Of a DNA stretch of 64,000 bases, positions 22,745-64,000 are shown piece after piece. The notes beneath the pieces are model-generated. The model saw nothing but the letters and a program-made list of their open reading frames with translations, had not been told where the DNA came from and made no database searches. The first letter of the stretch is position 1; each line of letters begins with the position of its first letter. This stretch comes from Candidatus Dojkabacteria bacterium (GTDB taxonomy: Bacteria; Patescibacteriota; Dojkabacteria; B142; WJKM01), in NCBI GenBank assembly GCA_014729085.1, contig WJKM01000009.1:61973-125972 (forward strand), in the 5' to 3' direction. The translations under genes were made by a program, and so were the position numbers.

Positions 22745-23734
22745 TTATGGTTCTTCTGTCTGTGTACGTTCTTTAATATAATTTTTAACATCTATATTTT
22801 TTACTCTCATTCCTGCTGTCAATGAACAGAAACTATTTTTCCCATACATTGTATTTGAAGCAACTGCTGGACCGAGATATTCACAATTTGGGTTGCATAT
22901 AAATAGACCACCTCCACTGTCACCCTGTTGGAATGCATTTGTAGTGAATGAGTTCTCAAATGTTTCGCAAAGTGAGATATCGCCTTCTAGAAGTTGATCG
23001 TATAACTTTACTGTGGTAGTAACATCATCTAAGTTAGTAACATCATCTGGTAGAGGTGCTAGGCATATAAGTCTATCGTCATCCGGGAGCATATTTTCGG
23101 AACCTGAAAATTGGAGGCAAGTATCATCCGGCAAAGTTATAAATTCTTTTATTTCTTTAGGAGATTTAGATTCATATTCTTCACCTCTGTCTTGATTATG
23201 GATAGCTAGATAGACAAGTTCCCCAGGTTGTAAATTTCCTTCAGATACATCGACGGTTGGTGCATTGGGCATTTCCATTTGCGTAAAAGCTACGTCATAC
23301 CAAATTTTGGACCAGTCGTCATGATGGATTATATGTGTATTGAGAAATGTATTATTCTGAAATTTTACATAATCTTTTGATCTGTATTTTTGCTCATTAC
23401 CTGGACGAGAGTCTACTGCACTACAGTGTGCTGCAGTAATTCCATAGGCTTGGTCTTCCAAACTTTCAGCTATAACTCCCTGGCAGCCATGATAGTATTC
23501 CAAAGGTTCGCCTCTCTGATCTCCGAGTGAAATTGTTGCTTCCCATGGAATTGGCGGATCAGATGATAAAACAGTTTCATCAAATGGAGAATTTAAATCC
23601 CTTGGTGTTGGATCCGGCCTTATTGATTCATCTTCTGTAGACAGCGTTGTAGGTTGATCACATCCGCTTAATAGTAGCATTGTTATTAAACCTATAGGTA
23701 GCCCCAAACGTTTTAAAAAGTTTTCTTGTTCCAT
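22745..23734 (-). CDS. Secreted trypsin-like (S1) serine protease, lipoprotein
   Basis: Lipobox LLSGC. Catalytic His in TAAHC and Ser in GDSGGGLF. Confidence 0.7.
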   Translation of the reverse strand: MEQENFLKRLGLPIGLITMLLLSGCDQPTTLSTEDESIRPDPTPRDLNSPFDETVLSSDPPIPWEATISLGDQRGEPLEYYHGCQGVIAESLEDQAYGITAAHCSAVDSRPGNEQKYRSKDYVKFQNNTFLNTHIIHHDDWSKIWYDVAFTQMEMPNAPTVDVSEGNLQPGELVYLAIHNQDRGEEYESKSPKEIKEFITLPDDTCLQFSGSENMLPDDDRLICLAPLPDDVTNLDDVTTTVKLYDQLLEGDISLCETFENSFTTNAFQQGDSGGGLFICNPNCEYLGPAVASNTMYGKNSFCSLTAGMRVKNIDVKNYIKERTQTEEP

Positions 23735-24042: not shown

Positions 24043-24080
24043 ATATTTTCTAAATTTAGCATCCTAATTCTTAAGCTCTA

Positions 24081-24108
24081 TCTTCATCTTCATCTTCATC
24101 TTCATCTT
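24081..24108. repeat. Hexanucleotide microsatellite (TCTTCA) of about 4.7 units
   Basis: tcttcatcttcatcttcatcttcatctt read directly from the sequence. Confidence 0.85.
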
Positions 24109-24233: not shown

Positions 24234-24249
24234 CGGAGAGAGGGGGATT
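24234..24249. repeat. 16-nt direct repeat of the tRNA-Ser 3' end (cggagagagggggatt), att-site-like
   Basis: Identical to 24327-24342 (T-arm/acceptor 3' strand of the tRNA), 93 bp away. Confidence 0.8.
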
Positions 24250-24268
24250 TCCCGTACAAATCTCATTT

Positions 24269-24299
24269 CATTCAATTTTACGGGACAGGCTTCTCATCC
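24269..24299 (-). other. Conserved about-31-nt tRNA-trailer motif, copy A (GGATGAGAAGCCTGTCCCGTAAAATTGAATG in tRNA orientation)
   Basis: Lies 27 nt downstream of the tRNA-Ser 3' end. Copy B (60202-60233) has a near-identical core at the same spacing from tRNA-Leu. Confidence 0.5.
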
Positions 24300-24326
24300 C
24301 CCTAGTAATTTATTGCTAAAGCGAAA

Positions 24327-24413
24327 CGGAGAGAGGGGGATTCGAACCCCCGATGAGCTTCCGCCCATACTCGCTCTCCAAGCGAGCGCGTTAGACCACT
24401 CTGCCATCTCTCC
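24327..24413 (-). tRNA. tRNA-Ser (anticodon GGA), class II with a long variable arm
   Basis: Manual cloverleaf: acceptor GGAGAGA/TCTCTCC, anticodon stem CTCGC/GCGAG with loop TTGGAGA, T-arm GGGGG-TTCGAAT-CCCCC, 87 nt, discriminator G, no encoded CCA. Confidence 0.85.
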
Positions 24414-24775
24414 ATTCATTTATACTGGATATTTTATCAGATAATTAGGAGATTACATAAAATTAAAGTTGAAAACTTTTCTATTTCTCATATTCCTTGG
24501 TAAATAGACATTTGATGTCATTATATATTAATGATAATAAACAGATACGCACAATAGCTATAGATATAGTTCTGGTATTATCCCAGAAGATTATTATGGA
24601 TCATTGAGTTGACACAAGAGTAAGGAGCTATTTAAGAATAACAAGCATAAAATTGTTTTAGATTAAAAATATATACCTATTGAATAGCATGTAGAATGAG
24701 TGATTATTAATTAATATAAAAAGATAGACTAGTAGCATTATCATTCAAAAGGATCCATGTTATACTATTTCCAAC

Positions 24776-38840: not shown

Positions 38841-41060
38841 ATGAACTTCATAAAAAATAAAAAATTTAGAAATATTTTTCTTTTAATATTTCTATTCGTT
38901 CTGATAAGTATTGCTGTTATATTACTTTTTGTTTTTGTTAAGTATAAAGATCAAGAAGATAGAAGAAGTTTCCAAGCCGAAAGATATAGTATTGAAATTG
39001 ACGATTCTTCTATTAATCCTTCAATTAAAATAGAACGCGGTGGGACTTCCCTCGAATTTGAATTCATTTCTGAGGAGATTGAAAGTAACTCAGGACAATC
39101 TCAAGTCAAAGGGGTTTCAATCGATAAAGAAAAAATTTCAAAAACAGATATACCGAGTCAAGGTATTACATTTTTCAATATTCATAAAAAAGATAAGAGA
39201 AAATTCAGAAAAAAAATAACAGATTCACTTGAAGTTCTATATACTTTAACTGATACTCAAATTAAAGAAGAGTTCGTTCTGTCCGAACCTAAAGATATAG
39301 ATCATCTAAAGTTCAAAATTAATCTTGAAGGACTTGATGCACGAAAGGGATATGATGGTATTTGGAGGTTTTACAATGAGAACGGAACTGAAACCTTCTA
39401 TATACCAAAGTCATTCATGAAAGATGCAAATGATGTTCATACTGAGAATGTAAGTATTGATATTGTAGATAATATGATGGTAATGAATTTGGATAAAGGA
39501 TGGTTGCTTTCTTCTGAGAGAAAGTATCCTGTACTTATAGACCCAACAATTGTACTTAGTATATTAACCGTTCATTCACATCCACAAACCGGAGATGATT
39601 GGATTGTAGATTTTAAAACTGAAGGAACTGCTGATTTAACTATTACTCCAGATGATCAAGCAACAATAGATGATATTGACTTTCTAACTCTTAGTTGCGG
39701 TAAGGAAGAGAGGACTCCGCAAATACTTGAGAATGATGTTATTTTCTATAAAAATTGGAACTGTGAAGATACGGCCAAAGTTTTTCATTACGTAAACACA
39801 GCTGCTCCACACAGGTTGAAGTTCCAGTTTGGGCAGGAAGTCGATTATGCATATAATTCGCCAAATAGTACTATATATGCATTTTCTGGTTTATCAACTT
39901 CGATACAAGATAGATTTGCTTATGAAAAATATCCAGATTCGTTTACAGGTCCTACGGATACGGGAGTATCGGAAGCTACAGCATCTGCTTACACTAGTTT
40001 AGAGGCTGATGATGGTTCGAGATGGGTGACAGATGGAGCAAGTAATAATGGGGAGATAGATGCTCAGCTTTATAAATTCATTATAGAAGAACAAGAAGCA
40101 AGTATAACGGATCTTAATATTAAGTGGAATGGTTTTGGCGATACTAGCGGAGGAGATACAGAATTATCTATTTGGAATTGGAATTTAAATCAATGGACAC
40201 AACTTGATAGCTATCAATTTAATAATAGTACGGATCTAGATCTTATTGGGTCAATATCAGGGGGCTTTTCTTCAATTGATCCATATGTATCAAGTCAGAA
40301 TGAGGTTATACTTATGGTTCATTCTAAAAAAACATTTGTTTGCGGAGAAGATATATTATATGGTGGCCAGTATTATAATACCGTACAAATAGGTAACCAA
40401 TGTTGGATGGCAGAAAATTTAAATATAACAGATGGAAATGAAGATGGAAATTGTACTTTTACAAGTGACTGTTATATTAGTTCTTCAACTGATACTGATA
40501 ATTGTAGTACGTTTGGAGGTTTGTATTACTGGGATGAAGCAAGGTGCGGTGAAACTGCATGCAATGGTACTGGAAAGACACAACCTGAATGTACAAATCC
40601 TGTTCAAGGAATATGTCCGGATGGATGGCATATCCCTAGTCATTATGAATGGAATGCACTCGAACAGCAAGTATGTTCAGATATTGGTAATACAAATTGT
40701 AACACCGAATTTCCTTATGATGAAACTACCACTAATTACAGAGGCCAAAGTAGCTCGGATGCACATGGGGAGGCCTCTGCATTAGCCGGGGGTTGTAGTT
40801 TATGGAACAATGATGTTTTAGATAACTATGGTTCATGTAATAACGATTTCGGTACTACAGGATTAAATCTTCTTCCTGGTGGTATGTATTCTTTTGGAAG
40901 TTATCATGAGAAAAATAGAGCAGGGTATTATCTTAGTTCAACAGAAAAAGATTCAACATATATTTGGCATAGAATGTTTCATTATGCATACACGCAGACT
41001 TATAGACAACCTGTAAATAAGTCAAATGTCAATTTTTCAATACGATGTATTAAAGACTAA
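38841..41060 (+). CDS. Large secreted/membrane-anchored protein with a C-terminal Fibrobacter-succinogenes-major-paralogous (Fib_succ_major, TIGR02145-like) domain
   Basis: N-terminal TM/signal. The C-terminal roughly 240 aa begin YYNTVQIGNQCWMAENLNI and end NFSIRCIKD, the diagnostic start and end of the Fib_succ_major domain. Many Cys. Confidence 0.6.
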   Translation: MNFIKNKKFRNIFLLIFLFVLISIAVILLFVFVKYKDQEDRRSFQAERYSIEIDDSSINPSIKIERGGTSLEFEFISEEIESNSGQSQVKGVSIDKEKISKTDIPSQGITFFNIHKKDKRKFRKKITDSLEVLYTLTDTQIKEEFVLSEPKDIDHLKFKINLEGLDARKGYDGIWRFYNENGTETFYIPKSFMKDANDVHTENVSIDIVDNMMVMNLDKGWLLSSERKYPVLIDPTIVLSILTVHSHPQTGDDWIVDFKTEGTADLTITPDDQATIDDIDFLTLSCGKEERTPQILENDVIFYKNWNCEDTAKVFHYVNTAAPHRLKFQFGQEVDYAYNSPNSTIYAFSGLSTSIQDRFAYEKYPDSFTGPTDTGVSEATASAYTSLEADDGSRWVTDGASNNGEIDAQLYKFIIEEQEASITDLNIKWNGFGDTSGGDTELSIWNWNLNQWTQLDSYQFNNSTDLDLIGSISGGFSSIDPYVSSQNEVILMVHSKKTFVCGEDILYGGQYYNTVQIGNQCWMAENLNITDGNEDGNCTFTSDCYISSSTDTDNCSTFGGLYYWDEARCGETACNGTGKTQPECTNPVQGICPDGWHIPSHYEWNALEQQVCSDIGNTNCNTEFPYDETTTNYRGQSSSDAHGEASALAGGCSLWNNDVLDNYGSCNNDFGTTGLNLLPGGMYSFGSYHEKNRAGYYLSSTEKDSTYIWHRMFHYAYTQTYRQPVNKSNVNFSIRCIKD

Positions 41061-41074
41061 TTTAATCCAAAAAT

Positions 41075-44000
41075 ATGATATCAAGCATAAAACAAAAGAT
41101 ATTAAACAATATAAAAAAAATAATAAAAATTGTTATTATCCTTTGGATTTCATCAATTGTTCTTCTATTTGTAAATAGGAATTCAGAGGCTAGTTTAAAT
41201 TCTGATTATATTGAGTTAATTGTAATTTTCACCAAATCTAACGGTGAGACATGTTCAAGCGGAACAGATTGTACCTCAGGTTTTTGTATAGATGGAGTGT
41301 GTTGTGATTCGGCATGTAATACTACATGCGAGGCATGCAACCTGAGTGGTACTGAAGGTGTTTGTACTAATATTCCGGATAATCAGGATCCAGATTCGGA
41401 ATGTAGTGCTGAAATATGGTCATCTTGTGATAGTGTATGTGTAAAAAGGGGAGCAGATGGATACTGCGATGGAGCTGGAGCCTGTGATACTAATGATGAT
41501 ACTTCCTATATTCAGACTGCTGGAAAGGTGTGTTCTTCCGGAAACGAAGTAGATCCAAACTCTTCACATTATTGTGATAGAACAATTGAATGTAACGATG
41601 GTATTTGTTCTGCAACTAGATACTATAGAGGTTGCAGCTCAGGTGGTTCTTCTTGTACAGATACTGGACGAATTTCTTATGGTAATTGGAATGCTCCAGA
41701 AAATAGTACTGTTTCAGAGAATAATTATAAGACTGGCACTACCTGTTTGACTAATTTAGATTTTTGTAAATATGGAACCTACCAATGTACAGGTACAGGT
41801 TCTCCTTATTCTTGCCAGCGTTCAAGAGAAGTCTTTAGGTGTGATGGAAGTGGTTCCTGTACATATAACGCAGGAAGTGAAGTTGCAGACATTCCTAGTG
41901 GAAGTGTCTGTACAGGATCAGGGAATATAACTGCTGGAAGTTCGGACTATTATGCATTTTTAGATACTAGCGATCGCTGTTCAGATTCAACTCCGGGAAG
42001 CGGTTTTGGAGATAGAGTATATGATGTCTTTGCATGTGATGGTAATAATGCACAGGGACCTGACGTCGGAGATAGAACAATTGATTGTGCAGATGCATGT
42101 TGTTACGATGAGGGTGCGACAACTATGTGTGTTGCATCAGAAAATTTTAATACTTATGATTGGTATGATTTTGGAGTTGGAGATAGTACAGCTACTGATT
42201 ATTGCAGTATGCAGACAGTATACGATTGTTATAACGACAATGATTGTCAGCCTGGTTATTATTGTTCATCTAATTCTTGTATAAATACTTGTTCCCAAAA
42301 TTCTGATTGTCCAAATGGGTATTTTTGCAGTGAGATAGGTTCCTGTTCACCACAAAAAGTAAGTAGTGAAGCTTGTGATTTTTCAATCACAGAAACAGAC
42401 TCATCAAGCGAAAGTAATGGCGTTTGTAGTTCAGGTTATTGCAGAGATGATTACGACAATACTGAAGACGGTGATGGAAGCTGTGAAAATGGTGAATCTT
42501 GTTGGTGTGCTGATTCAAGTTTTGATTGTACAACTGATGGGATTTCTGTGAATACAGGAGAATTTGCCTCAAATGATTGTTTTGAGGGTGGTTCTGGAAT
42601 AAATCCAGGTTCACGGGCACAGTGTTCAGCAGGTGCATGGCAGTCTGTCACTTGTGGATATAGTACTTATAATTCCTGTAACAATTCCTGCGAAAAAGGA
42701 AGAGACGTTTATCACTGCGATAATACAGATAATACATGTTTTGATAGCGGAGAAGATGATTATAGTACAGTCTCTTTAAGCAAAGTATGTGATAACGGAA
42801 ATGAAGTTAATGCAACAAGTGAGACGTTAGCATGTGATAACAACACTGATTATTTTTGTACTAAAGGAGCCTGTGCCGGATCTTATAGATATTCCGAATG
42901 TAATGGATCTGGTATTTGTGATACAAGTTCAACTAACAATTACGAAGAGTATGGAGTTACTGCTGACGTAGGGTATACACTAACTTCAAATTGTCAAACT
43001 AATGGAACTACTATTTGTGGAACAGGAAGCTGGATTTGTTCTGGAACATGCGGTATTACCCGCGAAGAATATAGATGTGATTCAAGCCAGACATGCTCAG
43101 AATATATAGGAGATGAATCACAACCTTGTGGAATTGGGGAATATTGCAGCTCTGGTGCTTGTGGGACAGGAACATGTAATGAAACTAGAACCTATTGTCC
43201 TGCATCTGGTGATGATAATTATAATGTGGGTGGAGATTTATTTTGCCAAGCAACATGTGATGGAAATTATAACTGTGATTATGCAACAAATTGTATTGAG
43301 GTATGTGGAGATAGTGTTGTTTCTGTTTCCGAGGGATGTGATGACGGAGATACCGAAGATAACGATGGTTGTTCTTCTGCTTGTACTGTAGAAACAGGAT
43401 GGAGTTGCAGTGGAGAACCGAGTGTATGTACAGAGATACACGGAGACGGAGTAATAGCAGGAGCAGAAGAATGCGATGATGGGAATACAGAAGATGGAGA
43501 CGGTTGTACATCAATTGGAAATATAGAAACAGGATGGAGTTGCAGCGGAGAACCAAGTGTATGTACTGAGATACACGGAGACGGAATAATAGTAGGAACA
43601 GAAGAATGTGATGATGGGAATACAGACAACGGAGATGGTTGTACATCAACTGGAAATATAGAAACAGGATGGAGTTGTAGCGGTGAGCCAAGTGTATGTA
43701 CAGAGGATGATACAGATGGTGATGGATTGACTGATAATTATGAGTTACTTATAGGTACTGATCCTAATGTTTATGATAGTTGTGATCAAGCAAGCGATTG
43801 TGAATCCGATGAATTTTGTGCTTCTACTTTACAGGTAGGTGCCTGTCTTTTAAAAAAATCAACGGGTAGTGTCTGTGATTATAACGAAACAGAAACTGAT
43901 TCAGCTGCAGAAAGTCATGCAGTTTGCAATTCGGGAGTTTGTCATGATGATTATGATAATAGTCTAGAAAATGGTAATGGTTTATGTGAAGCAAATGAGG

Positions 44001-45586
44001 AATGTTGGTGTGTTTCTAACCAAAATGAATGTGTTACAGATGGTAACTTAGTAAATAACCAATCATATGCATCCAATAATTGTATTTCAGATGGGTCTGG
44101 AACTACATCTGGACAAAGAGCCCAATGTATAGATGGAGTATGGAGTGGGGCTTATTGCGAATTCGGAGATTGGGATACTTGTAATGGACGTTGCGAAAAA
44201 GGAAGATCGGTTTTCTATTGCGAAGATTCATCAAATTCTTGTTACGAAAGTGGTATAAAGGCCTATTCTTCTTTACAAATACCAAGTAAGGTATGTCAAA
44301 ATGGAAATGAAATAGATGCTAATAACGAAACAATTGCCTGTGATGGCGATACTAATACATTCTGTAATGATGGTGCTTGTGTAGGCTTTATTAGATTTTC
44401 AGAATGTGATACCAGCTCTAATTGTGATAATGAATCTAATACCTATTATGAACAAATAGAAATTACTGCCGATGTAGGACATACTCTTACTTCAAATTGT
44501 TCAACTGCAGGCAATACGATTTGTGATTATGGAAATTGGAGATGTAGTGGGTCTTGTGAACGTGAAAGAGATAAATATAGATGTGATTCAAATCAGCAAT
44601 GCGAAGAAGAAGTTGGAGAGGAAAACGAAAACATTAATGCTAATAGAGTTTGTAAAGATGGTAGAAATGTCGATGCAAACTCTATAGACTTATCTTGCAA
44701 TCAATCAGCAGATTATTTTTGTGATTCCGGTGCGTGTTCAGGTTATATACTGTACCCAGAGTGTGATGGGGATGGTTTTTGTGATACTCTTGCTAAGGAA
44801 TTTTATGAAAAAATAAATATTACTGCAGAAGAGGGATTTGCACTTACTGCTCAATGTAAGCAGCAAGAAAGCTCAACATGTGGAGAAGGTACAACTTTCA
44901 TACAAGATGATTCAATTCCGAGATCTGCGGTTTGCGGAGATGGTATTGTTCAGAATGGAGAAGAGTGTGATGATCATAATGTCATTGCTGGAGATGGATG
45001 TTCACCTGAATGTAGAAATGAGGTTTCTGAAACTGAGGATTCTACTTATGATGGACAGTCTACTGATGATTCCGAGACGAGTAGGAGTCCCGAAATAACA
45101 GCTACGGGAACTATAGTTGTGACAGGAACTTCGATACCTTCTGAGGAGGTTGATAAAAAAGCTGATTCTGATTCAGATCAAATCCCTGATTATTGGGAAA
45201 AACAATATTCATGTATGAATTGGGAACTTATCAATAGTGCTGATGATTCTGATGGTGATGGGTTAAGTAATCTGAAAGAATTTGAAATCAATACAAACCC
45301 CTGCGATAAAGATTCAGATAAAGATGGCATTGAAGATGGTGATGAAGTTAATCAAGGACTTAATCCAAGAATTGCAAATTTGGAAAATATTTCTATTGAA
45401 GATCAGAAAGATATAACACGAACAGATGATGATATACAGGTCTCAGAAGATATTCAGGTTACACGTGAAGAATCTTTTATTGCTAAATTATTTAGTAATA
45501 AAAGTATATTAATCGCTGGTTCATTTTCATTGCTTTTTTTAATTGGAGTTATAATTGCAATCTTTGTAAAAAAGAAGATTACATAG
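41075..45586 (+). CDS. Giant (1503 aa) secreted Cys-rich repeat protein with Myxococcus-type cysteine-rich repeats, thrombospondin-3-like Ca-binding motifs and a C-terminal TM anchor
   Basis: Signal/TM N-terminus. About 12% Cys. Three tandem CGD..V..EGCDDG(N/D)TEDGDGC...ETGWSCSGEPSVCTE repeats (DUF4215/TIGR02232-like) plus a fourth at CGDGIVQNGEECDDHNVIAGDGCSPEC. Also DTDGDGLTDNYE and DSDGDGLSNLKE..DKDSDKDGIEDGDE motifs. It ends LIAGSFSLLFLIGVIIAIFVKKKIT. Confidence 0.7.
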   Translation: MISSIKQKILNNIKKIIKIVIILWISSIVLLFVNRNSEASLNSDYIELIVIFTKSNGETCSSGTDCTSGFCIDGVCCDSACNTTCEACNLSGTEGVCTNIPDNQDPDSECSAEIWSSCDSVCVKRGADGYCDGAGACDTNDDTSYIQTAGKVCSSGNEVDPNSSHYCDRTIECNDGICSATRYYRGCSSGGSSCTDTGRISYGNWNAPENSTVSENNYKTGTTCLTNLDFCKYGTYQCTGTGSPYSCQRSREVFRCDGSGSCTYNAGSEVADIPSGSVCTGSGNITAGSSDYYAFLDTSDRCSDSTPGSGFGDRVYDVFACDGNNAQGPDVGDRTIDCADACCYDEGATTMCVASENFNTYDWYDFGVGDSTATDYCSMQTVYDCYNDNDCQPGYYCSSNSCINTCSQNSDCPNGYFCSEIGSCSPQKVSSEACDFSITETDSSSESNGVCSSGYCRDDYDNTEDGDGSCENGESCWCADSSFDCTTDGISVNTGEFASNDCFEGGSGINPGSRAQCSAGAWQSVTCGYSTYNSCNNSCEKGRDVYHCDNTDNTCFDSGEDDYSTVSLSKVCDNGNEVNATSETLACDNNTDYFCTKGACAGSYRYSECNGSGICDTSSTNNYEEYGVTADVGYTLTSNCQTNGTTICGTGSWICSGTCGITREEYRCDSSQTCSEYIGDESQPCGIGEYCSSGACGTGTCNETRTYCPASGDDNYNVGGDLFCQATCDGNYNCDYATNCIEVCGDSVVSVSEGCDDGDTEDNDGCSSACTVETGWSCSGEPSVCTEIHGDGVIAGAEECDDGNTEDGDGCTSIGNIETGWSCSGEPSVCTEIHGDGIIVGTEECDDGNTDNGDGCTSTGNIETGWSCSGEPSVCTEDDTDGDGLTDNYELLIGTDPNVYDSCDQASDCESDEFCASTLQVGACLLKKSTGSVCDYNETETDSAAESHAVCNSGVCHDDYDNSLENGNGLCEANEECWCVSNQNECVTDGNLVNNQSYASNNCISDGSGTTSGQRAQCIDGVWSGAYCEFGDWDTCNGRCEKGRSVFYCEDSSNSCYESGIKAYSSLQIPSKVCQNGNEIDANNETIACDGDTNTFCNDGACVGFIRFSECDTSSNCDNESNTYYEQIEITADVGHTLTSNCSTAGNTICDYGNWRCSGSCERERDKYRCDSNQQCEEEVGEENENINANRVCKDGRNVDANSIDLSCNQSADYFCDSGACSGYILYPECDGDGFCDTLAKEFYEKINITAEEGFALTAQCKQQESSTCGEGTTFIQDDSIPRSAVCGDGIVQNGEECDDHNVIAGDGCSPECRNEVSETEDSTYDGQSTDDSETSRSPEITATGTIVVTGTSIPSEEVDKKADSDSDQIPDYWEKQYSCMNWELINSADDSDGDGLSNLKEFEINTNPCDKDSDKDGIEDGDEVNQGLNPRIANLENISIEDQKDITRTDDDIQVSEDIQVTREESFIAKLFSNKSILIAGSFSLLFLIGVIIAIFVKKKIT
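43390..43700. repeat. About 2.6 tandem copies of a 120-bp near-identical in-frame coding repeat inside the giant protein gene
   Basis: gaaacaggatggagttgcag(t/c)gga gaacc(g/a)agtgtatgtac(a/t)gagatacacggagacgga recurs with period 120 at about 43390, 43510 and 43630. Confidence 0.75.
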
Positions 45587-59998: not shown

Positions 59999-60201
59999 AT
60001 TTTGTATATTAAAAAATAAAATAATGCAATTTCTAAGAGGAGTAAGGATTGATTAATTAGATGAATATATTATCAATATAGACCAGGTTCCATCTTTTTG
60101 CAAATTTATGTTGAATCTAGAAACTAGTTGTTTAGAAATTTAAATGTAGATTAGCTTCACAAAATGAATAGAATCAACTGATTTTACGAATAATATTCCT
60201 A

Positions 60202-60233
60202 CATTTAAAATTTCCGGGACAGGCTTATCATCC
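60202..60233 (-). other. Conserved about-31-nt tRNA-trailer motif, copy B (GGATGATAAGCCTGTCCCGGAAATTTTAAATG in tRNA orientation)
   Basis: The 19-nt core cgggacaggctt(a/c)tcatcc differs at 1 position between the copies. Both lie exactly 27 nt past the tRNA 3' end. Confidence 0.5.
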
Positions 60234-60260: not shown

Positions 60261-60346
60261 TGCCGGGAGCGGGACTCGAACCCGCACGCTTTATTAAGAG
60301 CAAAGGATTTTAAGTCCTTCGTGTCTACCAGTTCCACCACCCCGGC
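60261..60346 (-). tRNA. tRNA-Leu (anticodon TAA), class II
   Basis: Manual fold: acceptor GCCGGGG/CCCGGC(T), anticodon stem AAGGA/TCCTT with loop CTTAAAA, long variable arm, T-arm GCGGG-TTCGAGT-CCCGC, 86 nt, discriminator A, no CCA. Confidence 0.85.
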
Positions 60347-60385: not shown

Positions 60386-60462
60386 TGGAGGCCACGGTGG
60401 GATTCGAACCCACGCATAGGGGTTTTGCAGACCCCTGCCTTAACCAGCTTGGCTACGTGACC
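60386..60462 (-). tRNA. tRNA-Cys (anticodon GCA) with genomically encoded CCA
   Basis: Manual fold: acceptor GGTCACG/CGTGGCC, anticodon stem GGGGT/ACCCC with loop CTGCAAA, T-arm GTGGG-TTCGAAT-CCCAC, discriminator U followed by CCA (74 plus 3 nt). Confidence 0.85.
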
Positions 60463-60586: not shown

Positions 60587-60985
60587 TTATACTTTTGTCC
60601 ACTTTAATCCATAATGTATTATGCCATCTTTTCCATCCTCAAAATATTTTCTGAAAGTCGGAATAAAAACATCTCCCTTTTGGAGTTTATTATAGTCAAC
60701 GTCAACTATCTGAGTTGTAATTCTCTCGCCATTTTTAAATTCCAGAATACCAACAATATAAGGTTTCATATCTTCAAAACCAGCAGGTGGTGCATTGACT
60801 TCAGACCAAGTTATTAACTTTGCTTCGTTTTCAAATCTATACGCTTCGAATTCGGTATTGCTGTTTTCAGGTTCGACGAAGACTGGTGGATAATACGCTT
60901 TGTCAGTTTTTTTTGATTTACTGCCAATTAATAGATATCTACTTTTAAATTTTCTCCAAATTTTTGAGGGTGATTTTTTATGCAT
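60587..60985 (-). CDS. DUF35-like OB-fold protein (scaffold partner of thiolase/HMG-CoA synthase) lacking zinc-ribbon cysteines
   Basis: It is directly downstream of the thiolase gene. It has the yyPP motif and a C-terminal OB-fold-like region (YIVGILEF..GERITTQIVD) typical of DUF35. No Cys anywhere. Confidence 0.5.
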   Translation of the reverse strand: MHKKSPSKIWRKFKSRYLLIGSKSKKTDKAYYPPVFVEPENSNTEFEAYRFENEAKLITWSEVNAPPAGFEDMKPYIVGILEFKNGERITTQIVDVDYNKLQKGDVFIPTFRKYFEDGKDGIIHYGLKWTKV

Positions 60986-61010
60986 TTTAATTATTGTATT
61001 TAATTATTTA

Positions 61011-62153
61011 TTATATTTTTTCAAATATGTTTACAATACAGGTAGCTCCGCTACCTCCTATATTATGTGTTAGGCCATATTTCATATCTTTTTGAACTTG
61101 TCGTTTACCTGCTTTTCCGGTAAGTTGTTTAACAATTTCAACTGCTTGCTTAACTCCAGTGGCACCTACAGGATGTCCTGCTGCTTTAAGCCCTCCGGAC
61201 AGGTTTGTTGGAATTGAGCCATCCATTTGAGTATCTCCAGATTCCACAAATTGACCCCCTTTACCTTTCTCAACAAACCCAAGATCTTCATAAGCTAAAA
61301 TTTCAGCTATTGAAAAGCAGTCATGTACCTCCATAATATCAATATCTTTATTTTTAAGCTTTGATTGTTTAAATGCTCTTTCTTTAGCTTTGATTGTAGC
61401 TTCTAGAATTGTGATATCTTTTCGATCATGTAAGGCAAGGGAATCTTGAGCATGTCCAGATGCTATTAGTCTAATCTCAGATTTTTTCTTTGATGACATT
61501 ACAATTGCAGCCGCTCCATCTGAAATAGGAGAGGAATCGAAAAGTTTTAAAGGATCAGCAACAACCGGAGATCTTAAAACCTGTTCAACAGTAATCTCTT
61601 TTTGGAAATGTGCGTCTGGATTAAGAGTACCGTGTTTATGATTTTTTACAGAGCACATTGCTAGCTGTTCATGACTTGTTCCATATCTATTCATATGCTC
61701 TCTTGCGATCATTGCATAAAGTGATGGGAAAGTCACACCATAAAAAGCTTCCCATTCCTCATCGCTTGCGCCTGATAAACCTTCAGTTGCATTTTTAGTG
61801 TTTACATCGGTCATTTTTTCAACTCCTAGAATCAGGGCATTTTCTGAAGATCCACTAAGTAAATCAAGGAAACCAGCTCTAATTGCTGCAGAACCTGAGG
61901 CACAAGCTGCTTCAATATGAAACGCTGGACAATCCAGACCTAATTCTGTTGCAAATAAAGCACCTAGGTGGTCTTGTCCTGTGTAATGGGATGCTGCCAT
62001 ATTTGCAACATATAACACATCAATATCCTGAAGATTTATTTTAGAGTTTTGAACGGCATTAACTGCAGCCTCAACTCCAAGATCTCTAAAGTCTCGTTTC
62101 CAAAGTTCCCCAAATTTGGTTGTGTAGCCTCCGTTAACATATACTTGTTTCAT
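61011..62153 (-). CDS. Thiolase (acetyl-CoA C-acetyltransferase, archaeal/SCP-x-like type)
   Basis: The active-site Cys region EAACASGSAAIRAG, the C-terminal NIGGSGATCIVNI and overall 380-aa thiolase colinearity. Confidence 0.8.
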   Translation of the reverse strand: MKQVYVNGGYTTKFGELWKRDFRDLGVEAAVNAVQNSKINLQDIDVLYVANMAASHYTGQDHLGALFATELGLDCPAFHIEAACASGSAAIRAGFLDLLSGSSENALILGVEKMTDVNTKNATEGLSGASDEEWEAFYGVTFPSLYAMIAREHMNRYGTSHEQLAMCSVKNHKHGTLNPDAHFQKEITVEQVLRSPVVADPLKLFDSSPISDGAAAIVMSSKKKSEIRLIASGHAQDSLALHDRKDITILEATIKAKERAFKQSKLKNKDIDIMEVHDCFSIAEILAYEDLGFVEKGKGGQFVESGDTQMDGSIPTNLSGGLKAAGHPVGATGVKQAVEIVKQLTGKAGKRQVQKDMKYGLTHNIGGSGATCIVNIFEKI

Positions 62154-62169
62154 TTAAAACGTGTAAAAA

Positions 62170-62601
62170 TTAGATTTGGCTTGAATTTTTTTCAACTTTT
62201 ATGTCTGTTTCTTGTATTTCATCGAATTGATAGAAACCTGTTTTGGGATCTTTCTTTATTTTGAAATATCTTACCGGAATTTTTAACTCTTTTTCACAAT
62301 AATAAATCTCAGCAGCTACACCATCAGAGACTTTATCAAAAACCCATAGTTCATTAGCTAATCTGATTAAATTATCATTGACATCATATATCAATTTTCT
62401 TGAGATAGTATCCCCAAAAAAATAGTTAAAATTCATGAATGGATTAAGGGGAACTAATTTTTTTTCTAGAATAAATTTGGATATATGTTCTCTTAGAAAA
62501 AATTTTTGTTTAGAGTATGCAGGATATATTACCTTGAATTTTTTCCTTTTTCTCTTTAAATCATTTTTATTTATAATTTTTTGAATTTTTTTAATCATCA
62601 A
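62170..62601 (-). CDS. Hypothetical protein (possible nucleoside-2-deoxyribosyltransferase-like/DUF4406 fold)
   Basis: A weak pattern (LVPLNPF...ELWVFD..SDGVAAEIYYC) only. Confidence 0.25.
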   Translation of the reverse strand: MMIKKIQKIINKNDLKRKRKKFKVIYPAYSKQKFFLREHISKFILEKKLVPLNPFMNFNYFFGDTISRKLIYDVNDNLIRLANELWVFDKVSDGVAAEIYYCEKELKIPVRYFKIKKDPKTGFYQFDEIQETDIKVEKNSSQI

Positions 62602-63394
62602 TATTTTTTAATTTTTTGTTAACAAGTATGAATATACCAAATAGTAAAACTAGTCCAGAACTATTAATCACAATATATGCAGTTGATTTTCTAAGCATTG
62701 AGTTCCGTTCCGTAACATTTGAATATACCCCTGAAACGTTGTATCCTCTTGAAGATAAGCCACAATCAGTATTTACATAATTTGAGAGAAGATTTGCAGA
62801 ATTTGTAACATCTACATAATGTGCAAGTTTGGAATAATTAAAAAATGTTCCTTTTGGGAACCATTTATATACAACTTTTGTCTCTTTGTTATTTTCATTA
62901 CCTTCCTGAATATTTTCAATTTCTACTTTCTTTTCTATTTCATCTGCAGGAAATAGAATTGTACAAGAAGCTACATCGCTTTGACCATTCATATCTATAA
63001 TTGAAAGTCTTACATTATAATATCCTGGATATTTAAATTGATGGGCAAGTTTTTTTTCACCGACGAGACCTGTTCCATCATCTATTCGCCAAATATACTT
63101 TTCAACCTCATCTTTATACGTTTTGGAAATAGAGGCATCAAATTCAATTATTCTATTTTCCCAGTCTATATTTGCGACAAATCTTGCAATAGGATTGAAG
63201 GCAGCTGGCCATATTTCTGAACCCTTTATTTTAACTAAGTCTGTAATATAAGGAATTGTAGAGAGTAAAAGTGATATTTCTAGAAAAAGAAAAATACATA
63301 ACAAAAATATTTTTAGTATTTTTTTATATTTTTTCTTAAAAAAATCAGTTGTAGTATTGAATAATCTTTCTATTGTCTTTTTCTTTTTAGCCAT
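62591..63394 (-). CDS. Membrane-anchored protein with a PKD-like domain
   Basis: An N-terminal TM helix. WRIDDGTG......HQFKYPGYYNVRLSIIDMNGQSDVASCTI matches the PKD pattern WdFGDG...HtY..pG.YtVtLtVtD. Confidence 0.45.
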   Translation of the reverse strand: MAKKKKTIERLFNTTTDFFKKKYKKILKIFLLCIFLFLEISLLLSTIPYITDLVKIKGSEIWPAAFNPIARFVANIDWENRIIEFDASISKTYKDEVEKYIWRIDDGTGLVGEKKLAHQFKYPGYYNVRLSIIDMNGQSDVASCTILFPADEIEKKVEIENIQEGNENNKETKVVYKWFPKGTFFNYSKLAHYVDVTNSANLLSNYVNTDCGLSSRGYNVSGVYSNVTERNSMLRKSTAYIVINSSGLVLLFGIFILVNKKLKNIDD

Positions 63395-63418
63395 AAGTAA
63401 TAGACTTCTGAAGTAATT

Positions 63419-64000
63419 TTAATGAATTAATTTCTCCGTATGACGGACATATTCACCATAGGTAAGATAGATTTTTTTATTCAGTTGCTCATCAATATCC
63501 AGATCAAATTTTAATTTATCAATATTTTTCCGGTAACTAATAATATTTTTTGTTACCTCCAAAGCTATTGAATCACTACCCGCTCCGGAACCATAGCTGG
63601 TTACTAAGATTTTTTCTCCCGGATTAGCATTATCTAATACAGCTGCAAGCCCTAATAAGGAACAGGCAGAGTAGGTATTGCCTAGTTTTGAGACTATGAA
63701 GCCATGTTTCAGTTGTTCTTTATTTACTCCAAGATTTTTTGCAGCAACTAATGGGAATTTTCCATTAGGCATATGAAATATAACATGGTTGAAATCTGAT
63801 ATCTGCATTTTGGCTTCTTTTAATAGTTGCTTGGTAGCGCTTTTAATGTGTTTAAAATATGCAGGTTTTCCGGTAAATCTACCTCCGTGTTTAGGAAAAT
63901 GTCTATGTTCCCTTCTCCAGAAATCGGGAGTATCGGAAGTATATGAGGTAGTATGGATTATTCTTGCGATAACATCTTTATCACCAACAATAAATGCTGC
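63419..64000 (-). CDS. HMG-CoA synthase, C-terminal part (gene runs off the window end; N-terminus not in window)
   Basis: Manual extension of the reading frame upstream of the Met at 63808 shows no stops up to position 64000 (..AAFIVGDKDVIARIIHTTSYTSDTPDFWRREHRHFPKHGGRFTGKPAYF..). The C-terminal block SYGSGAGSDSIALEV and the rest are colinear with archaeal-type HMGCS/MvaS. Confidence 0.7.
   Translation of the reverse strand, partial: AAFIVGDKDVIARIIHTTSYTSDTPDFWRREHRHFPKHGGRFTGKPAYFKHIKSATKQLLKEAKMQISDFNHVIFHMPNGKFPLVAAKNLGVNKEQLKHGFIVSKLGNTYSACSLLGLAAVLDNANPGEKILVTSYGSGAGSDSIALEVTKNIISYRKNIDKLKFDLDIDEQLNKKIYLTYGEYVRHTEKLIH

Follow-up and report, generated by a model that had tools for sequence, protein, structure and literature searches.

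A motif behind two tRNA genes of a Dojkabacteria genome is apparently the tip of a widespread, tRNA-linked structured element

Why two tRNA genes of different specificity should be followed, at the same distance, by nearly the same short sequence is the question raised by a stretch of DNA from a Candidatus Dojkabacteria bacterium (64 kb, analysed as a whole and referred to here as the window). The window has a G+C content of 31%, carries a thiolase/DUF35/HMG-CoA-synthase cluster and encodes tRNAs that are bacterial in type; its thiolase shows 100% identity to a protein in NCBI from Candidatus Dojkabacteria bacterium, which belongs to the CPR/Patescibacteria. The pattern GGATGAKAAGCCTGTCCCG occurs in it twice, both times on the minus strand and each time 27 nt past a tRNA gene. 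The 19-mer of copy A, GGATGAGAAGCCTGTCCCG, lies at 24281-24299 (-), and the 19-mer of copy B, GGATGATAAGCCTGTCCCG, differs from it by 1 mismatch (60215-60233, minus strand); no further match with up to 3 mismatches was found in the 64 kb, and 100 shuffles yielded 0 matches. The ends of tRNA-Ser(GGA) and tRNA-Leu(UAA) were taken from Rfam (Table 1), and both motifs therefore start 27 nt after the discriminator base. When the two trailers were aligned, they were alike only from GGATGA to about 12 nt past CCCG, and their spacers were unrelated. These results confirm what a first-pass annotation had described from the sequence alone, namely two motif copies with a 19-nt core differing at one position, equal 27-nt spacing and unrelated spacers. 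The nested hairpin that it had proposed for copy A was also recovered, with GGGGGAU pairing with AUCCCCC (24242-24248) and CCCGUA pairing with UACGGG.

Table 1. Positions of the two motif copies, their parts and the adjacent tRNA genes in the window.
Feature	Position	Strand	Evidence
tRNA-Ser(GGA), intact host tRNA of copy A	24327..24413	-	Rfam tRNA, 54.6 bits; ARAGORN
Copy A, complete H unit (left arm, bulge, P2 hairpin, tRNA 3'-end copy)	24234..24305	-	Covariance model R1, 59.9 bits, E = 5e-15, full model
Copy A, P1 5' strand GGGGGAU (left arm GGG + GGAU), partner of tRNA-copy positions 59-65	24296..24302	-	Fold, R1, family covariation
Copy A, bulge GAGAAGCCUG, 10 nt	24286..24295	-	Identical in 83/84 distinct family members (GAG part unconstrained in the metagenome scan)
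Copy A, P2 hairpin: U-CCCGUA, AT-rich 22-nt loop region, UACGGG-A	24250..24285	-	Fold, R1
Copy A, copy of tRNA-Ser positions 58-73, AAUCCCCCUCUCUCCG, forming P1 3' strand + acceptor 3' strand	24234..24249	-	Direct repeat with 24327-24342
tRNA-Leu(UAA), host tRNA of copy B	60261..60346	-	Rfam; ARAGORN
tRNA-Cys, just upstream of tRNA-Leu(UAA)	60389-60462		
Copy B core GGAUGAUAAGCCUGUCCCG, bulge GAG changed to GAU	60215..60233	-	R1 only 13.3 bits, E = 0.17
Copy B relic: P2 interior, closing strand, start of tRNA copy	60178..60214	-	Alignment to intact H unit at L168

Copy A is a complete example of a unit, here called H, in which a left arm, a bulge, a hairpin (P2) and a copy of tRNA positions 58-73 follow one another in tRNA orientation. 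The left arm (4-10 nt) is complementary to the 3' strand of the tRNA T stem and is followed by GG-R-Y and then by GAGAAGCCUG as an unpaired bulge, which is the same in 83 of 84 distinct units, its GAG part having been left unconstrained in the metagenome scan described below. P2 consists of U-CCCG-N-N, a variable segment of 2-44 nt and N'-N'-CGGG-R; the pairs at its base are invariant, the fifth and sixth pairs covary and the interior is variable. Behind P2 comes the copy of the neighbouring tRNA, with A58, R59-U60-C61-C62, what remains of the 3' strand of the T stem, the 3' strand of the acceptor stem and N73. The left arm and GGRY pair with positions 59-66 of this copy to form the outer helix, P1, which has 7-8 bp in copy A, where the predicted fold has an energy of -22.8 kcal/mol (z = -2.4). 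The T-loop nucleotides 54-57 are replaced in H by the bulge together with the hairpin, which has a fixed base (U-CCCG/CGGG-R). In this model, each unit is predicted to fold, with its sense strand alone, into a structure that mimics the T arm of the neighbouring tRNA; RNA is the simplest reading of the folded strand, and single-stranded DNA is also allowed. Units are about 50-145 nt in size, and their tRNA-derived part starts at position 58 and is identical to the local tRNA in 57 of 77 units. The core of 21 nt is identical from CPR bacteria to Bacteroidota, and loops and spacers are lineage-specific. The features observed in the family are thus a structure of two helices, this core, an obligatory position behind a tRNA and a matched copy of positions 58-73. 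The att-like repeat that had been noticed beside copy A is this duplicated tRNA 3' end, a 16-nt copy of tRNA-Ser positions 58-73. Searching the whole window with the covariance model R1, which was made from members of the family, found nothing beyond copies A and B; copy A is an old but intact unit and copy B a decaying one.

The hairpin had first been seen in copy A, and both helices were found to covary strongly across the family. In an alignment of 43 sequences, compared with 500 shuffles and with slid registers as a control, 91.6% of cells were paired (78.5% when shuffled), compensatory, double-sided change was found in 101 cells (34 when shuffled) and the covariation score was 0.413 (0.166 when shuffled); none of the 500 shuffles attained the observed values and every slid register was far lower. 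Among 84 units, the nucleotide before GAG (X position 4) and tRNA position 59 form U-A in 25, C-G in 51, U.G in 7 and C.A in 1, X position 3 and U60 form A-U in 67 and G.U in 17, and U15 and R57 form U-A in 71 and U.G in 13. As G.U pairs greatly outnumber A.C pairs, the structure is read as a single strand in the sense of the tRNA (RNA or sense DNA). Pairing of the left arm with positions 63-66 is good, if imperfect (85, 62, 77 and 57%), with 144 of 220 cells paired vs 104 ± 5.6 in 10,000 permutations. Past position 66, pairing is at chance level as a family average (32-52%); at L026, L124, L162, L088, L152 and L061, a helix of minihelix type is formed (about 12 bp up to N73, followed by an unpaired 3' tail), and in short-unit arrays the left arm is complementary to nearly all of positions 59-72, so that a minihelix-like stem of 12-15 bp results. 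Where the real T stem contains a G.U pair, the left arm makes A-U instead (L018, L028, L046); the arm therefore complements the 3' strand and does not reproduce the 5' strand of the T stem. A pseudoknot partner for the bulge was not detected in the loop or flanks. The only word type in excess in that search was GGCTT, which is explained by terminator stems, and a partner of this kind was rejected.

H is found in Bacteroidota, Balneolaceae, Marinimicrobia, Patescibacteria and one gammaproteobacterial MAG, with more than 150 units, a number that represents the yield of limited database scans. Scanning 185,579 species genomes with GGATGANAAGCCTGTCCCG gave 47 loci, approximately 30 of them with N = G. 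The latter belong to Balneolaceae, many Bacteroidota, Marinimicrobia, Patescibacteria/Saccharibacteria and the one gammaproteobacterial MAG, and almost all directly follow a tRNA gene of the same orientation; the loci with N = A or C are in coding regions of unrelated bacteria and look like chance matches. A metagenome scan with the 5' part left free (pattern AAGCCTGTCCCG N4-34 CGGGRARTCC) gave at least 120 loci, and the free 7 nt in the tRNA-linked matches listed were GGACGAG (38), GGGCGAG (22) and GGATGAG (11). Each of the 84 distinct units is preceded by an intact tRNA or by a further unit, and what look like exceptions are due to contig ends or to decay of the last unit. The upstream tRNAs represent at least 16 isotypes, including Ser, Leu, Ala, Ile, Val, Pro, Arg, Asn, Gln, Lys, His, Asp, Thr, Gly and Met, and the distance from tRNA position 72 to the unit is either 8-28 nt or 59-77 nt; units after tRNA-Ala sit in the rRNA-operon spacer. 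Since a unit can follow any isotype, at a distance of 8 to 77 nt, the equal 27-nt spacing and the restriction to class-II tRNAs in the window, both of which had been proposed as specific properties of the motif, are coincidences. The more general idea that the motif is a specific hairpin-forming element tied to tRNA 3' flanks is borne out by the scans, and the motif did not show generic occurrences away from tRNAs, as a common repeat would.

Cultured carriers include Gracilimonas tropica DSM 19535 and G. amylolytica. In the former, units follow tRNA-Ser-GGA on NZ_AQXG01000003.1 and tRNA-Ser-GCU on NZ_AQXG01000006.1. H was absent from 2.9 million viral contigs, phage records and plasmids; these collections gave only chance or coding matches, and an origin from phages or plasmids was rejected on that basis. 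Rfam holds no family for H, the sole nearby sub-threshold match being sX4, and a literature search by sequence strings and keywords found no description of it. Therefore, H is apparently an undescribed, tRNA-linked structured element that is widespread.

Units multiply in tandem, are polymorphic in presence and absence and later decay. The longest array (L046) has 12 units of 66 nt, shorter arrays consist of 3 units of 63 nt (L011) or 3-4 units of 63-64 nt (L124, L162), and 2-3 units each are found at L015, L018, L013, L027, L028, L061, L100, L113, L115, L123 and L159; the array period is the sum of tRNA copy, spacer, left arm and core. Copy number differs between relatives. In a Gly-Leu-Gly tRNA operon, L101 and L127 carry a unit after both identical tRNA-Gly copies and L090 after only one, the site behind its first tRNA-Gly being without a unit. 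In this filled-vs-empty pair, the one pair found, the loci differ only by the unit itself: the trailer TTTTTTTTATTTAAGGAG has stayed as it was, and the spacer matches the one behind the second tRNA-Gly. The unit at the first tRNA-Gly was probably copied between the two identical tRNA genes, judging from these sequences.

The tRNA-Leu(UAA) locus of copy B shows H in three states. A metagenome contig with 34% G+C (L168) has the same order of tRNA-Cys and then tRNA-Leu(UAA) as the window, and its unit after tRNA-Leu(UAA) is intact (64.4 bits). The alignment of copy B with this unit extends across the P2 interior and reaches the closing strand and the first part of the tRNA copy, UAUUCGUAAAAUCAG in copy B being derived from UAUACGGGAAGUCCC in L168, and copy B is thus a decaying ortholog. 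A relative with 71% thiolase identity and the same synteny (L056/L057) has no unit after tRNA-Leu. The expectation that the motif would be kept at the same tRNA locus in relatives therefore holds for the first relative and not for the second. Decay affects distal copies, and the tRNA-proximal copy retains full acceptor pairing; where copies differ, the tRNA-proximal one pairs equally well or better with the acceptor 5' strand, except at L061 and at L143, where the position assigned to the acceptor 5' strand is probably wrong (4-5 of 7 paired at best). This better pairing indicates that the functional copy is the tRNA-proximal one. An intron-like alternative 3' half of the tRNA was rejected for the same reason, L061 being one odd exception. 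In L055, another Dojkabacteria relative, two tandem units after tRNA-Pro(GGG) contain the same hairpin-plus-GCCUGU module in inverted orientation, joined directly to the tRNA copy; this inverted related module favours an insertion process at the DNA level.

The ends of the duplicated segments coincide with RNA 3' ends. In young copies, the duplicated segment ends either 0-5 nt from N73 or at the T-run of a terminator, the latter in three informative young copies (L116, L024 and L173), and in the other single units compared the shared sequence stops 0-5 nt after N73. In the long-spacer class, the spacer holds the intrinsic terminator of the tRNA. The units themselves are not terminators, as the first-pass annotation had considered: no terminator-like site was found on the minus strand at copy A or B, the 10-nt acceptor strand lies between the helix and any T-run, and units are found inside tRNA operons, between co-transcribed tRNAs. 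A promoter was also rejected, as no positionally conserved TTTG/-7-like motif was found upstream of the units. Among the 25 most frequent of 91 Pfam families in 75 ORFs within 3 kb downstream, integrase, reverse transcriptase, transposase and recombinase were not found, nor were cas, tnpB, tns, IntI or RAYT. The downstream families reported are housekeeping ones (trigger factor, FGGY kinases, UPRTase and others), and the boundary of a genomic island was rejected since no mobility genes were among them. Non-encoded CCA was no more frequent in the tRNA copies than in genes, and retroposition of mature tRNA was rejected for want of such an excess.

The explanation that we tentatively prefer, with a confidence that stays somewhat below one half, is that the motif is the core of a small, non-autonomous, self-propagating repeat at the 3' ends of tRNA genes. 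Such a repeat would leave the tRNA gene intact because the 3' segment of the gene is duplicated. The invariant core would be the handle for a factor acting in trans at T-loop position 57/58, by cutting and joining or by a template switch, and the tRNA segment of a new copy would be copied from 58/59 to the 3' end of an RNA, possibly on an RNA template; this end would be either the mature tRNA end or the U-run of a terminator. Spread between identical tRNA copies could occur by recombination through the short tRNA repeat. An RNA template is suggested because the boundaries coincide with RNA 3' ends and the copies start at 58/59, the position at which reverse transcriptases stop on m1A58-modified tRNA. 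The support for this part is thin, as it consists of three informative terminator boundaries and comes with no excess of non-encoded CCA. A stronger version, which we consider quite doubtful, holds that GAGAAGCCUGU and the CCCG/CGGG hairpin form a module of about 35 nt that has no protein of its own and represents a new class of tRNA-gene parasite, which would copy itself behind any tRNA gene by joining or template switching at 57/58, its T-arm/minihelix mimic being recognised by a trans-acting enzyme, possibly a reverse transcriptase or a single-strand nickase. Evidence against self-propagation is that no mobilising enzyme was among the Pfam families reported and that H was not found in the viral, phage and plasmid collections. 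Moreover, the left arm pairs imperfectly with positions 63-66, and we know of no mechanism that would give both arms a match to each new tRNA.

Among known systems, H appears to work most like the tRNA-integrating elements of the T-loop class, from which it departs in having neither their cargo nor, among the Pfam families reported, their integrase. P4-type integrases and the tycheposons of Prochlorococcus use a crossover in the T loop, duplicate the 3' part of the tRNA and leave arrays of partial tRNAs. Like these elements, H duplicates the tRNA 3' part from the T loop with the tRNA left intact, has the displaced partial tRNA at its far end and builds up in tandem at one tRNA. Unlike them, H measures 63-145 nt, an invariant hairpin replaces the T loop in its partial tRNA copy, and one core is found at 16 or more tRNA isotypes in several phyla. 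With attC sites, REP/REPIN sequences and MITEs, H shares conserved helix bases, a loop of variable length and unpaired conserved bases, and it is likewise arrayed, non-coding and probably active as a folded single strand. It differs from them in that its outer helix is copied from or matched to the adjacent tRNA rather than being element-specific, and in lacking fixed terminal inverted repeats, R/L boxes or a fixed TSD; cassette ORFs, IntI and RAYT were not seen near H among the Pfam families reported. The repeats of E. coli tyrT (rtT RNA region) carry the last ~19 nt of tRNA-Tyr and are species-specific. They resemble H as tandem units behind a tRNA gene, each with a copy of the tRNA 3' end, but are not known to have a conserved hairpin core common to different tRNAs and phyla.

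A further likeness concerns the sRNA sX4 of Xanthomonas, a Northern-validated transcript of 280-300 nt. The Rfam model of sX4 (RF02223) comprises tRNA-Ser and its trailer, and in its last helix the 3' strand of the T stem is paired with GGGGGG further downstream, behind which UGAGA follows. This GGGGGG and UGAGA look like the left arm and the start of the core of H, and the model ends short of the core. With sX4, the window reaches 37.1 bits, mostly from the tRNA-Ser part, compared with a gathering score of 70 bits. The sX4 model therefore provides a hint that the family may reach Xanthomonadaceae and may be transcribed there.

The main rival to a self-propagating repeat is a structured RNA that benefits the host, made from tRNA read-through transcripts and mimicking the top half of a tRNA (T arm plus acceptor 3' strand), the bulge of which would bind a conserved protein or RNA and, for example, aid or regulate 3'-end processing or titrate an enzyme that binds the T arm. 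We regard this reading as possible but, on balance, unlikely. A small RNA or a site for protein binding, both of which the first-pass annotation had listed, is likewise possible. It would account for the invariance of the 21-nt core across phyla, for covariation that includes G.U pairs on the tRNA-sense strand, for the conservation of the acceptor part of the copy, which is unpaired, and for the minihelix-like stem of 12-15 bp in short-unit arrays. Units that lie inside tRNA operons are co-transcribed with the tRNAs, and the end of sX4 resembles the left arm with the beginning of the core; both observations fit an RNA. Moreover, units are kept across Balneolaceae genera at orthologous tRNA-Ser loci and, with tRNA-Ala, in the rRNA-operon spacer. 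At these loci the core, the hairpin base and the unpaired acceptor part are identical, although the spacers, including the rRNA-operon spacer, have diverged beyond alignment, which looks like selection for a function in the host or as an RNA unless gene conversion explains the identity. A function for the host is harder to reconcile with a rare and patchy distribution (the 19-mer was found at 47 loci in the 185,579 species genomes), with 0 to 12 copies at the same type of locus, with frequent decay, of which copy B is one case, with the location of long-spacer units past the intrinsic terminator of the tRNA and without a conserved promoter, and with the existence of an inverted variant. The two readings, a self-propagating element and a host-functional RNA, are not mutually exclusive.

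Three other explanations carry far less weight. HDV-like theta ribozymes were reportedly described behind phage tRNAs by Kienbeck et al. in 2024, and H resembles them as a small, conserved, structured element immediately 3' of tRNA genes; by analogy, it could process the tRNA trailer as an RNA catalyst, by self-cleavage or another activity. H lies directly behind tRNAs, and its small invariant core between two variable helices is typical of small ribozymes. This is nonetheless very unlikely, since H has no HDV-like fold, is chromosomal rather than phage-borne, contains a copy of the tRNA 3' end and has only two helices, with no pseudoknot partner for its bulge in loop or flanks. No Rfam ribozyme family, including the pistol, hatchet, hammerhead, twister and HDV-like/theta models, matched the window region or one array at E <= 10; readings of GAUGAGAAGCC as a hammerhead, HDV-like, twister or hairpin ribozyme or as a k-turn were rejected because core positions did not fit and Rfam gave nothing. 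In addition, the distance of 8-77 nt from the tRNA end means that the unit cannot define the mature 3' end at most loci. Even less probable is that H represents the scar or attachment site (attR-like) of an element with a tRNA-targeting integrase and that the motif is the arm of this element, a reading close to the attB core of an integrase-borne island that the first-pass annotation had named among its candidates as fitting the repeat next to copy A and that is already largely refuted. A direct repeat of the tRNA 3' end from position 58 to N73 (+0-5 nt), or to the terminator, does begin in the T loop as at T-loop-class integrase sites, and arrays of partial tRNAs are known from such islands. 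Units of 63-145 nt, up to 12 of them in tandem, leave no room for cargo, though; the filled and empty sites differ by the unit alone, no integrase or other mobility family was among the Pfam families reported, and the sequence of an arm would not stay identical across phyla. Equally improbable is a guide-RNA-like module in which the hairpin would provide the scaffold and the 16-nt tRNA copy would act as guide, next to the universal GGTTCRA T loop as a PAM/TAM-like signal, serving an RNA-guided nuclease or transposase encoded elsewhere. The order of scaffold before guide, an array period of 63-66 nt (about 34 + 30) that resembles CRISPR geometry and the position of many units about 60-75 nt past the tRNA are compatible with such a module, but all "spacers" within an array are identical, the scaffold loop can be as short as 4 nt or as long as about 60 nt, the first 7-8 nt of the putative guide are tied up in pairing with the left arm, and cas, tnpB and tns were absent from the Pfam families reported nearby. 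A CRISPR array proper was rejected, as the inter-repeat segments are all the same tRNA copy and no cas family was reported. An archaeal C/D-box sRNA (C box RUGAUGA, with a D box CUGA expected at about 50-60 nt) was rejected as well, there being no D box at either copy, and this candidate and an archaeal BHB-type element are both at odds with tRNAs of bacterial type and a CPR host.

The motif pair in the window is apparently the tip of a widespread tRNA-linked structured element. If this element is mobile or self-amplifying, as tentatively preferred here, it would represent a harmless colonisation of essential tRNA genes without a linked protein gene and would explain many of the "partial tRNA" calls and the assembly breaks behind tRNAs in genomes of the Bacteroidota group and the CPR. 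If its new copies are RNA-templated, it would represent a bacterial counterpart to SINE-like retroposition, with tRNA genes as the target. If it is instead a functional RNA, its 21-nt core, which is the same from CPR bacteria to Bacteroidota, must bind something universal and would point to an unrecognised step in the handling of tRNA or rRNA-operon transcripts. Under either reading, H represents a clean, easily modelled new family of RNA or DNA with cultured carriers.

In a Dojkabacteria relative (L055), tRNA-Pro(GGG) is followed by two tandem units of an inverted form of the H element, the small structured repeat found behind tRNA genes. The hairpin base and the GCCUGU of H are both present in these units, but in inverted orientation (CCCGAUAUGCAUCGGG-ACAGGC), and the inverted module is joined without a gap to the copy of tRNA positions 58-73. 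Because ACAGGC is also the acceptor 5' strand of tRNA-Pro(GGG), each unit can, judging from its sequence, be folded into a microhelix. The clearest locus for a distal copy that looks "better" than the tRNA-proximal one is L061, where the acceptor 3' strand of tRNA-His itself pairs with the 5' strand at 5/7 positions and the copy in the two downstream units at 6/7. A distal copy also pairs better at a second locus, L143, but the acceptor 5' strand there is probably mis-located.

Hairpins that resemble H (GCGGG-GAAGCCUGUCCCG-8 nt-CGGGGAAUCC-..CCCGC) were found at five metagenome loci (L131, L069, L158, L147 and L148), where they score 22-31 bits with R1, the covariance model of the H family, and have no tRNA nearby; these hairpins appear to be dispersed or degenerate. 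The same short-bulge variant directly follows tRNA-Asn in L153. An intergenic segment, AGTCCCGAAGCCTGTCCCGATTTTGCTACAATCGGGAAATCC, is identical in 14 human-gut metagenome contigs (L066, L068, L070 and 11 more), in which it has neither a tRNA nor a left arm, the strand complementary to the 3' strand of the T-stem; it may represent a fixed relic of the H element in a single gut Bacteroidales species.

Locations of features in the window and in database loci
Feature	Sequence	Positions	Strand
Inverted units, tRNA-Pro(GGG)	L055	12150-12300	minus
tRNA-His and units	L061	150-560	
H-like hairpin	L131	8060-8160	
tRNA-Cys/tRNA-Leu spacer	L056	7690-7822	
tRNA-Cys/tRNA-Leu spacer	L057	3501-3633	
tRNA-Cys/tRNA-Leu spacer	L168	13051-13177	
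ORF with GDSGG motif	window	22745-23734	
Microsatellite	window	24078-24108	
sX4 match	window	24292-24429	minus
G+C and skew jump	window	40001-44000	
1503-aa ORF	window	41075-45586	
Mevalonate trio	window	60587-63808	

In the window, the 500-nt gap between copy A, the intact element behind tRNA-Ser(GGA), and an ORF with a serine-protease-like GDSGG motif and no Pfam match contains a short TCTTCA-type microsatellite (tcttcatcttcatcttcatcttcatctt). The tRNA-Cys to tRNA-Leu spacer, ~130 nt long in relatives (L056, L057, L168) with a conserved internal hairpin, GUUU(C/A)AACGACC(A/G)AAG(U/G)AAGUU(G/U)AAAC, is only 42 nt in the window and lacks this hairpin. Elsewhere, genes for a DUF35/OB-fold protein, thiolase and HMG-CoA synthase form an archaeal-style mevalonate trio in this CPR bacterium, which HMG-CoA reductase adjoins in relatives (L056, L058). 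A 739-aa ORF is followed by the 1503-aa ORF, inside which G+C increases sharply to 37% and GC skew reaches 0.28.

A sub-threshold Rfam match (37.1 bits vs 70) to the Xanthomonas sRNA sX4 was also found in the window, and the 3' end of the sX4 model resembles the left arm and the beginning of the conserved core of H. This match and this likeness hint that the H family may reach the Xanthomonadaceae and be transcribed there.
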